From Fimbriimonas ginsengisoli Gsoil 348 (GTDB taxonomy: Bacteria > Armatimonadota > Fimbriimonadia > Fimbriimonadales > Fimbriimonadaceae): 64,000 bases of DNA. The notes under the pieces were generated by a model that was not told where the DNA came from, searched no databases, and saw only the letters and a list, made by a program, of their open reading frames with translations. Shown here in pieces: positions 12,921 to 13,447 of the stretch. The stretch is taken from positions 1,498 to 65,497 of the forward strand of contig CAMCVK010000012.1 of NCBI GenBank assembly GCA_945881865.1, given 5' to 3'. Every line of letters starts with the position of its first letter. Within the stretch, counting starts at the first letter, position 1. The position numbers and the translations under genes were made by a program.

Positions 12921-12942
12921 GAGAGTTAGACGACGAGGGTAG

Positions 12943-13401
12943 TTGAGGGTGGAGGAGGTTAAGTCGAAAACGGGAATCAGTTTTCGCGACCTCGAGGTCT
13001 GGCAGCTCAGCCGAGATTTGGCGGTGGAAGTTTACGACCTCTCTCGAAATTTTCCGGACTCTGAGAAGTTTGGCCTTTCGTCGCAGCTTCGACGGGCGGC
13101 AGTTTCGGTCTCCTCAAATATTGCCGAAGGGCACGGAAGAAGGGGCGATAACCAGTTCGCCTACTTTTTACAGGTGGCTCTGGGCTCCCTCGCGGAGACG
13201 GAATCGCTGGTGGAAGTTGCGGCCGCGATTGGCTTGATGCCTCACGACGGCGTCGGCACGCTGAGGGCTTCTTCGACTCGGCTCGGCGTTAAGTTGAACA
13301 ACTTGCTCGCGGCCGTGAACCGAAGGCGAGTCTCGGAAGACGTCGAGCCATACGATCCCTCTGCTCCCTCTGATCCCTCTCCTCAACCATCCTCCACCTA
13401 G
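12943..13401 (+). CDS. Four-helix-bundle protein (23S rRNA IVS / Avd-like family)
   Basis: SFRDLEVWQ...[27 protein letters not shown]...[12 protein letters not shown] family signature. Confidence 0.9.
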
Positions 13402-13447
13402 CCTCAACCCAACCCCCTCCCCCCAAAAGAACAACGAGAAAAACAAA

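Follow-up and report, generated by a model that had tools for sequence, protein, structure and literature searches.

A probable gene-in-a-hairpin cassette of the intervening-sequence type in the groES–groEL spacer of an Armatimonadota genome

The window (the whole stretch of 64,000 nucleotides of DNA that was analysed) very probably contains, between groES and groEL, a cassette of the type known from the intervening sequences (IVSs) of 23S rRNA: a gene enclosed in a hairpin, co-directional with the operon, transcribed from a CIRCE/HrcA-type promoter and with its start and stop codons in the arms of an imperfect stem of about 25 bp.

The genes are arranged head to tail in the order groES, PF05635 gene, groEL, all on the forward strand. 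A spacer of 527 nt separates groES (12630-12920, 96 aa; Pfam Cpn10, E 9.8e-35) from groEL (13448-15076, 542 aa; Pfam Cpn60_TCP1, E 3.8e-78). Further neighbours of the cassette are a ROK kinase and one gene without a Pfam family. On the same strand 5' of groES, at 12579-12605, a CIRCE-like inverted repeat, TTAGCAGTC-N9-GACTGCCAA, was read from the sequence. We take this repeat, which resembles the CIRCE consensus, to be the likely HrcA operator. A homologue of hrcA was found in the genome, and together with the CIRCE-like repeat it makes the operon look like a normal HrcA-controlled heat-shock operon. A promoter and terminator scan revealed neither a promoter-like site nor a terminator in the flanks of the spacer; the same scan reported a weak terminator-like site inside the PF05635 ORF (13143-13162). 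Long direct repeats were not found in 12800-13600, and no Rfam family matched between 11000 and 16500 at E<=1. The source genome (3.2 Mb, 26 contigs, 98% complete) encodes RNase III (rnc). It has a single PF05635 gene, the one in groESL, with copy numbers from 0 to 11 in its relatives. The question whether other four-helix-bundle genes of the same genome have similar flanks is therefore moot.

The ORF in the spacer encodes a four-helix-bundle (4HB) protein of the family PF05635 (23S rRNA IVS protein, S23p, Avd-like; E 6.7e-33). The match reaches 113.5 bits at a cut-off of 33.8 and covers positions 1-105 of the 106 positions of the domain. The ORF has no ATG. Translation could start at TTG 12943 (152 aa) or, more likely, at GTG 12949 (150 aa, the form present in the protein database); with the stop codon TAG at 13399-13401 the gene then extends from 12949 to 13401 on the forward strand. 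The protein, aligned with those of congeners, contains the conserved NIAEG-x-GR motif of the family. Its nearest relative with a solved structure is S23p from Xanthomonas campestris (PDB 2gsc, E 1.9e-21), a toroidal homopentamer of four-helix bundles (PMC4990558). The core of the window's protein is basic (pI 8.1), and its acidic tail (pI 4.05), rich in proline and serine, is encoded by the pyrimidine tract. A 9-nt tandem repeat, TCCCTCTGC in 3.2 copies (13356-13384, forward strand; TRF), encodes PSAPSDPSP and runs into the 3' arm. PF05635 is a very large family with more than 5,000 matches at E<=1e-10, and many homologues are co-annotated as PF22296 (bAvd-like). Within this family the window's protein forms an isolated lineage: the next best matches among 5.8 billion proteins are 49-57% identical, and the best of the genus 47-49%. 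The same 5.8 billion proteins contained no close relative of the window's cassette in which fine-scale compensatory changes could be followed.

Two complementary tracts enclose the gene; both were recognised from the fold, the pair probabilities and the repeats. The 5' arm (12937-12963, forward strand) is rich in purines and in G, consists of degenerate heptamers (GTTGAGG, GTGGAGG) and holds the likely start codon GTG 12949. The 3' arm (13382-13415, forward strand) is rich in pyrimidines and in C, and contains CCTCAAC and CCTCCAC units. The original prediction had placed the core tracts AGTTGAGGGTGGAGGAGGTT at 12941-12960 and AACCATCCTCCACCTAGCCTCAACC at 13385-13409, and both sequences and positions proved exact. 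It had also proposed that the tracts can pair and loop out the ORF, and this is what the folds predict: the purine and the pyrimidine tract are paired in the MFE as well as in the centroid fold of 12921-13447, and in the predicted fold of the 1071-nt groES-to-groEL transcript the pairs 12942-12960 x 13385-13408 have a probability of about 0.97. Extensions of the stem (12937-12940 x 13412-13415 and 12962-12963 x 13382-13383) have pair probabilities of 0.7-0.86. The predicted stem of about 25 bp is a long-range structure closing a loop of about 420 nt and is interrupted by the bulges A12941, A13389 and UAGC 13399-13402, the last of which contains the stop codon of the ORF. Beyond the stem follows a C/A-rich groEL leader (13416-13447, forward strand) resembling the 18-nt 'empty' spacer of a relative (L047). 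As to the GG(T)TGAGG-type units that had been described for both tracts, the heptamer-like units GTTGAGG/GTGGAGG versus CCTCAAC/CCTCCAC are real yet degenerate. CCTCAAC recurs at a spacing of 21 nt, and the only repeat detected by TRF is the 9-nt repeat at 13356-13384.

Taken alone, the complementarity of the window's arms is only marginally above chance and among the weakest of the set. Local alignment of the arms gave 21 matches in 27 positions (z 2.4), and the whole-fold z of 12921-13447 is -2.0. In 1000 dinucleotide shuffles of the 3' flank a duplex as good as that of the arms arose 44 times, and 89 of 649 equally spaced background flank pairs from the window reached the same quality. We accepted the pairing as real because almost all short-form PF05635 genes examined are enclosed in the same way. 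This comparison comprised 41 short-form loci from the genus and its order, located in groESL or beside rplA, mnmE, the acetyl-CoA synthetase gene (acs), an icd/leuB-type dehydrogenase gene, uvrB and others. When cognate and non-cognate flanks were compared with RNAduplex, all GT-rich arms paired with all CA-rich arms; for this reason the test was changed to strict local alignment at the DNA level, in which each 5' flank was aligned with a reverse-complemented 3' flank. By this test the mean arm score was 35.5 for cognate and 17.7 for non-cognate flanks of the 41 loci. The cognate flank was the best partner at 22 of the 41 loci and among the top three at 34, and where a non-cognate flank scored best it mostly came from a related locus having the same repeat unit. 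Compared with shuffles, individual loci reached z values of up to 19. Arms at z>=4 were also found in 22 of 31 relatives from other phyla (Bacteroidota, Patescibacteria, Balneolales, Verrucomicrobiota, Gammaproteobacteria), and none of these 31 adjoins groES or groEL. Similar flanks at other members of the family, as had been anticipated, are thus present in the order as well as in other phyla. Judged by this distribution, the complementary arms belong to the gene family and are not peculiar to the groESL site. The alignments show, moreover, that arm complementarity is maintained while the arm sequence differs at nearly every locus.

For the groESL site itself the sample was the GTDB genus of the source genome. 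groES was located in 45 of 46 genomes, and the primary groES-groEL junction was resolved in 39. The relatives lack the cassette or have other versions of it, in agreement with the proposed insertion into groESL. Seven spacers are empty, with 12-18 nt and a ribosome site only (e.g. GGAGAAACACGAAC). Seven others, of 67-134 nt, have only a hairpin or remnant, and most of these fold as a hairpin; L032, for example, is a clean solo hairpin of 82 nt with the heptamer arms GTTTGTAAGTTTGTGAG...CTCACAAACTCACAAAC (z -5.5). A short-form PF05635 gene with arms occupies 11 spacers, the window included (432-956 nt), a long-form gene without arms 13 (820-1077 nt), and the one remaining spacer (L059, 1687 nt) has no PF05635 gene. 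Each short-form gene in groESL has on either side an array of short tandem units, and the two arrays are complementary to each other. The unit varies from species to species: GTTCGGATT/AATCCGAAC, GCAGTTGG/CCAACTGC, GCATGGCTTT/AAAGCCATGC, GTGTTGG/CCAACAC, GAGGGTGG/CCACCTC and others. Genome G021 has a second, divergent groES/groEL pair with an arm-bearing cassette of its own (L061). All 12 arm-bearing groESL cassettes (11 primary, one at the paralogue) have the same direction as the operon, and all are located between the groES stop codon and the groEL ribosome site.

The long-form genes start 10-20 nt past groES and encode a glycine/arginine-rich tail of 100-200 residues (GGGGGFRPGGGGGRP...). 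Their arm z is about 0-1.3, with L055 at 3.0. Directly before groEL, four of them (L055-L057 and L062) have a small hairpin together with consecutive heptamers of the TAACTGA type, apparently left over from a 3' arm. The RGG-tailed, arm-less long form is apparently a domesticated derivative.

Turnover at the site was followed on a tree of groES and groEL DNA, which has only 723 columns. L039, L040 and L046 form a clade in this tree (100/100) with very short branches. Between L039 and L046, 2 of 285 positions in groES and 2 of 960 in groEL differ (groEL 99.8% identical); the spacer of L039 is a 528-nt cassette, that of L046 has 14 nt and no cassette. L040 differs from both by 7 positions in groES and 34 of 960 in groEL (genes about 97% identical) and has a different cassette. 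The 4HB proteins of L039 and L040 are 46% identical, and on the 4HB tree L040 groups with L004 and L031 (95/87), L039 with L029 (98/86) and next to the long forms (95/94). L039 and L040 nevertheless agree in the 10-25 nt at either edge of the spacer and do not differ in the first 128 nt of groEL. The exchanged unit therefore consists of arms and gene, with borders inside the spacer. In a recombination-tract test the differences of L040 to L039 and L046 were not clustered beside the cassette.

A second clade (98/99) contains L037 with a full cassette, L044 with a 67-nt remnant that aligns to the L037 ORF at its 3' end, and L047 with an 18-nt C-rich scar (CCCAACCCCCCGAAGAAC) resembling 13408-13432 of the window. 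Loss thus occurs by ordinary deletion and not by precise excision. No target-site duplication was visible in the alignments of occupied and empty spacers. As for the mechanism of insertion, neither a target duplication nor a transposase nor a conserved arm sequence was seen. On the 4HB tree the genes located in groESL cluster (4 changes versus 11 in shuffles), suggesting that the cassettes tend to stay at, or to be swapped between, the same site across species and do not hop at random. Comparison of the spacers shows that the cassette is an insertion and that the groESL spacer of the genus is a hot spot of cassette gain, replacement, deletion to a solo hairpin or scar, and conversion to the RGG-tailed gene without arms. 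By these comparisons the cassette behaves as a fast-turning-over insertion element, unlike an ordinary operon gene. The encoded proteins are under purifying selection, which is strong for the ORF shared by two cassette loci outside groESL, L014 and L070 (dN/dS 0.025).

Processing of the groESL mRNA by RNase III is plausible in view of the stem of about 25 bp, its predicted pair probability of 0.97 and the rnc gene in the genome. In the operon transcript the arms would pair and bring the end of groES and the groEL leader together. The double-stranded stem would be a substrate for the RNase III of the genome, as it is in the IVSs of 23S rRNA. If cut there, the transcript would give up the cassette RNA and fall into a groES and a groEL part, neither coding region nor the groEL leader being damaged. 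Such a harmless cut-out would explain how inserts of this kind can persist in rRNA as well as in essential operons. Because the start codon of the 4HB gene lies in the stem, most translation would have to precede synthesis of the 3' arm, or to proceed with the stem held open by ribosomes. In the DNA the arms may act as inverted repeats, leading to inversion and probably to concerted evolution of both arms, and between species the cassettes may spread at a given site by recombination at or near their borders.

We considered several alternatives. First, the cassette could be a purely DNA-level selfish element with inverted repeats, the arms being kept by recombination or gene conversion, template switching and slippage and the RNA stem being an unselected by-product, whether or not the operon mRNA is cut. 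When 286 arm mismatches from 51 loci were compared for their G.U compatibility in sense and antisense, no excess of sense-strand compatible mismatches was found (62 sense versus 77 antisense, p 0.23), and with 147 of the 286 transversions were as common as transitions. Both results fit a DNA-level upkeep of the inverted repeats better than selection at the RNA level. Inversion between collinear flanks was seen elsewhere in the genus for L014 and L070, whose flanks are 93-95% identical and whose central 416 nt, the cassette, are inverted and only 86% identical. The genes of L021 and L063 are sisters that occupy one site but point in opposite directions, and L020 and L070 carry genes of different 4HB clades at one site. 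The interior of the cassettes also has a history different from that of the flanks. The L014/L070 ORF has a dS of 0.76, whereas the flanks diverge by no more than 5-7%, and the history of this cassette is deeper than that of its surroundings; L039 and L040 similarly have 46% identical proteins inside operon genes of about 97% identity. Tandem arm units are, in addition, prone to slippage. The wobble result and the inversions make DNA-level homogenisation a serious alternative or additional account of the kept complementarity. As the sole explanation we regard it as possible but not probable: the 12 arm-bearing groESL cassettes are all co-oriented despite the inversions elsewhere and are placed exactly between the groES stop codon and the groEL ribosome site, RNA processing has been demonstrated for the homologous elements of rRNA (PMC4990558), and arms of 25-45 bp with 85-95% identity, 400 nt apart, would be short for efficient homologous conversion.

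Second, the gene could be a member of the heat-shock operon that benefits the host, its product being a nucleic-acid-binding or RNA-chaperone-like partner of GroES/GroEL and the hairpin serving translational control, for instance by masking the start codon in a heat-labile stem. The position of the start codon within the stem, the clustering of the groESL-located genes on the 4HB tree and the separate cassette of the second groESL paralogue in G021 would agree with such a function. In one clade the form that has been fixed is the one without arms; its RGG/FRPGGGG tail is of a kind typical of RNA-binding proteins, and it is under purifying selection (dN/dS 0.06-0.16 for the long forms). The PF05635 gene is kept at groESL in 24 of the 39 species; in 14 of the 39, however, only a remnant is left or the gene is missing altogether, and the state varies between close relatives. 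Since like cassettes are also found beside the unrelated genes rplA, mnmE, acs, icd/leuB-type and uvrB, and copy numbers range from this one copy in the source genome to 0 to 11 in relatives, we consider a host function of this kind doubtful.

Third, the arms could be iterated binding sites, in the manner of iterons or parC, for the cassette's own pentameric protein, which would bind them as DNA or RNA for autoregulation or for maintenance and mobility. Relatives of the protein, the Avd proteins, bind nucleic acid and reverse transcriptase, and the co-annotation as bAvd-like (PF22296) as well as the basic 4HB core (pI 8.1) would be in line with such binding. Each cassette, moreover, has its own unit, and clades tend to share one (GTTCGG in L004, L031 and L040; GCAGTTGG in L035 and L038). 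Units common to a clade are, however, expected from common descent alone, and solo hairpins persist without the gene, in genomes that may have no 4HB gene, so that this proposal appears quite unlikely to us. Finally, that an ordinary small gene has flanks complementary merely by chance or by low-complexity composition, as could be argued from the insignificance of the window's arms alone and from the ease with which purine and pyrimidine tracts pair, is hardly credible and is contradicted by the comparative data, in which the design recurs at no fewer than 40 loci with different sequences and is accompanied by presence/absence polymorphism, solo hairpins and inversions.

We prefer the reading as an IVS-type gene in a hairpin. 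Going further, we tentatively propose that the PF05635 hairpin cassettes may form one widespread, undescribed class of mobile cassettes, of which the 23S IVSs would be the case noticed first. Such cassettes would live in the transcribed spacers of highly conserved and highly expressed operons, groESL among them, insulated by their repeat-built stem, and would move from genome to genome as units bounded by the arms. The protein would aid its own maintenance or mobility, for example by binding the cognate arms, and in one Armatimonadota clade it would have been domesticated as an RGG-tailed chaperonin partner. No description of PF05635 hairpin cassettes outside rRNA was found in the literature, the coverage of which was incomplete, so that this is no proof of absence.

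Known since about 1990, the IVSs of rRNA are still unexplained as regards origin, mobility and the function of the ORF (PMC4990558). The groESL locus shows this type of element in an mRNA operon and adds evidence of cassette replacement and of inversion between near-identical flanks. Within a single genus the site is found filled with different cassettes, reduced to a hairpin or a scar, empty or domesticated, and cassettes at other sites are inverted; from this natural series it can be learned how, and how fast, cassettes are gained and lost. In addition, the locus ties the long-puzzling intergenic tandem heptamer repeats to an element that carries a gene. If the stem is cut by RNase III, this would be a new way for a selfish insert to rewire the stoichiometry of an essential chaperonin operon, and the PF05635 family would gain a context for functional study.

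The helix-45 IVS of Coxiella burnetii measures 428-444 nt and has a stem of 28 bp with one mismatch and one bulge, in the middle of which RNase III cuts (PMC4990558). The cassette described here agrees with this and other ORF-bearing 23S rRNA IVSs (Leptospira, Brucella, Xanthomonas-type S23p) in the ORF family (PF05635), in size (about 470 nt), in the location of the ORF in the loop of complementary termini (predicted stem of about 25 bp with three bulges) and in the very high expression and conservation of the host transcription unit (PMC4990558). Since complementary flanks form a stem whose loop holds a PF05635 ORF, and since the size class is that of the Coxiella IVS, the earlier designation of the element as IVS-like holds. 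Sporadic occurrence among close relatives is a further common trait, the spacer states here differing within clades supported at 100/100. In contrast to the 23S rRNA IVSs, the host is the groES-groEL spacer and not an rRNA helix (9, 25 or 45), the arms are short tandem repeats, and start and stop of the ORF lie inside the stem. The ORFs here are under purifying selection, whereas S23p of Coxiella is decaying and is reported not to be made in vivo (PMC4990558), and so the rRNA paradigm says little on the role of the protein. The cassette is IVS-like in its stem, its ORF family and its sporadic distribution; it is not an IVS in the strict sense, being located outside 23S rRNA.

Heptanucleotide tandem repeats are also known from bacterial intergenic regions as the STRRs of cyanobacteria. 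The arms resemble these and the TAACTGA repeats of Beggiatoaceae (PMC4679880) in having tandem units of 7-10 nt, in transcribed spacers and just 5' of start codons. STRRs and TAACTGA repeats are, however, described as direct arrays without an enclosed gene, whereas here two complementary arrays bracket a gene; the paper on the TAACTGA repeats makes no mention of four-helix-bundle genes, IVSs or an enclosed gene (PMC4679880). With Avd of the diversity-generating retroelements the protein shares a related pentameric four-helix-bundle fold, but the gene stands alone inside a hairpin. An assignment as an accessory gene of such a retroelement was rejected, as neither a reverse transcriptase nor a pair of template and variable repeats lies beside the cassette at this locus. 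MITEs and REP/BIME elements are, like the cassette, small, intergenic, bounded by inverted repeats and tolerated in operons, and copies without a gene exist. The cassette differs from them by arms that are not conserved between copies, by the absence of a visible target-site duplication and by its conserved protein gene. We know of no cognate transposase. A transposon with terminal inverted repeats or a MITE was rejected because the arm units differ at nearly every locus and because the alignments of occupied and empty sites show no target duplication. An RNA thermometer of the ROSE or fourU type was rejected as well, since there was no Rfam match at E<=1 and the stem is a long-range one with a loop of about 420 nt, not a local hairpin of the 5'-UTR.

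Cleavage of a groESL mRNA between its two cistrons is known from Agrobacterium tumefaciens. Neither an inserted gene nor a long repeat-built stem is known to take part in it, and nuclease and site differ from those considered here. If the stem of the cassette is cut, the outcome would nevertheless be alike in both cases, namely separate groES and groEL segments with different stabilities.

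In one clade of the genus the spacer between groES and groEL carries a long form of the PF05635 gene (250-330 aa), which starts 10-20 nt downstream of groES, lacks the complementary tandem-repeat arms and encodes a protein with a glycine/arginine-rich C-terminal tail of the FRPGGGGG/RGG type. The loci assigned to this form are L036, L043, L048, L051-L053, L055-L057, L060, L062, L015, and L045. In a tree of groES+groEL DNA they are close to monophyletic (branch support 67/28), and the long-form genes may have a single origin. These genes are under purifying selection (dN/dS 0.06-0.16), and the NIAEG-x-GR motif is gone from some of the proteins (L055, L062). 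The long-form gene looks like a domesticated derivative of the gene carried by the cassettes, and its product is possibly RNA-binding.

Cassettes, that is, PF05635 genes with their arms, were also found at other sites. In genome G021 an arm-bearing cassette (L061, G021:C34:17000-19900; arms GTAAGGGGTAAGGAGTGAGGACG and CGTCCTTACCCCTCACCCCTCAC) lies in the spacer of a second, divergent groES/groEL paralogue pair. Two species (L068 in G003 and L076 in G018) have sister cassettes immediately 5' of mnmE (trmE), and these form another site-faithful cassette lineage. At L017, from a different family of the same order, the cassette adjoins rplA.

The orientation of the cassette is flipped between two species (L014:1496-1910 and L070:1153-1568). 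The flanks of these two loci are collinear and 93-95% identical, but identity drops to 86% in the inverted segment, whose ORF shows a dS of 0.76 and a dN/dS of 0.025. This pattern points to an orientation polymorphism of long standing or to an exchange of alleles.

In L046 (G014) GroES ends in AILN* in place of AILG*, abutting an empty spacer of 14 nt. The groEL gene of this locus shows only two differences from that of its cassette-bearing relative L039, one of them at nt 45. The cassette could have been lost through a short tract of recombination or deletion, of which the changed GroES end and the difference at nt 45 would then be traces. The very GC-rich groES-groEL gap of an outlier species (L059, G061:C3:2180800-2183900) comprises 1687 nt and contains no PF05635 gene. 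There groES precedes a GC hairpin that has a T-run and resembles a terminator, so the two genes may be uncoupled.

Upstream of groES in the window a CIRCE-like operator, TTAGCAGTC-N9-GACTGCCAA, was read from the sequence at 12579-12605. Its repeat deviates in the central bases from the canonical CIRCE form, TTAGCACTC. The same genome encodes an hrcA homologue. Downstream of groEL, a 244-aa ORF (15156-15890) had no match in a Pfam search at E<=0.001.

Four of the long-form spacers (L055, L056, L057, and L062) contain a run of TAACTGA-type heptamer direct repeats in the final ~40 nt upstream of groEL. The run, CAACTGA CAACTGT TAACTGA TAACTGA GAACTGA, abuts the groEL start, and a small hairpin (TTGGCGGTTTGCAG...GCAAACCGCCAA) lies before it. 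Its heptamer is identical to that of the unexplained direct repeats of the Beggiatoaceae (PMC4679880).
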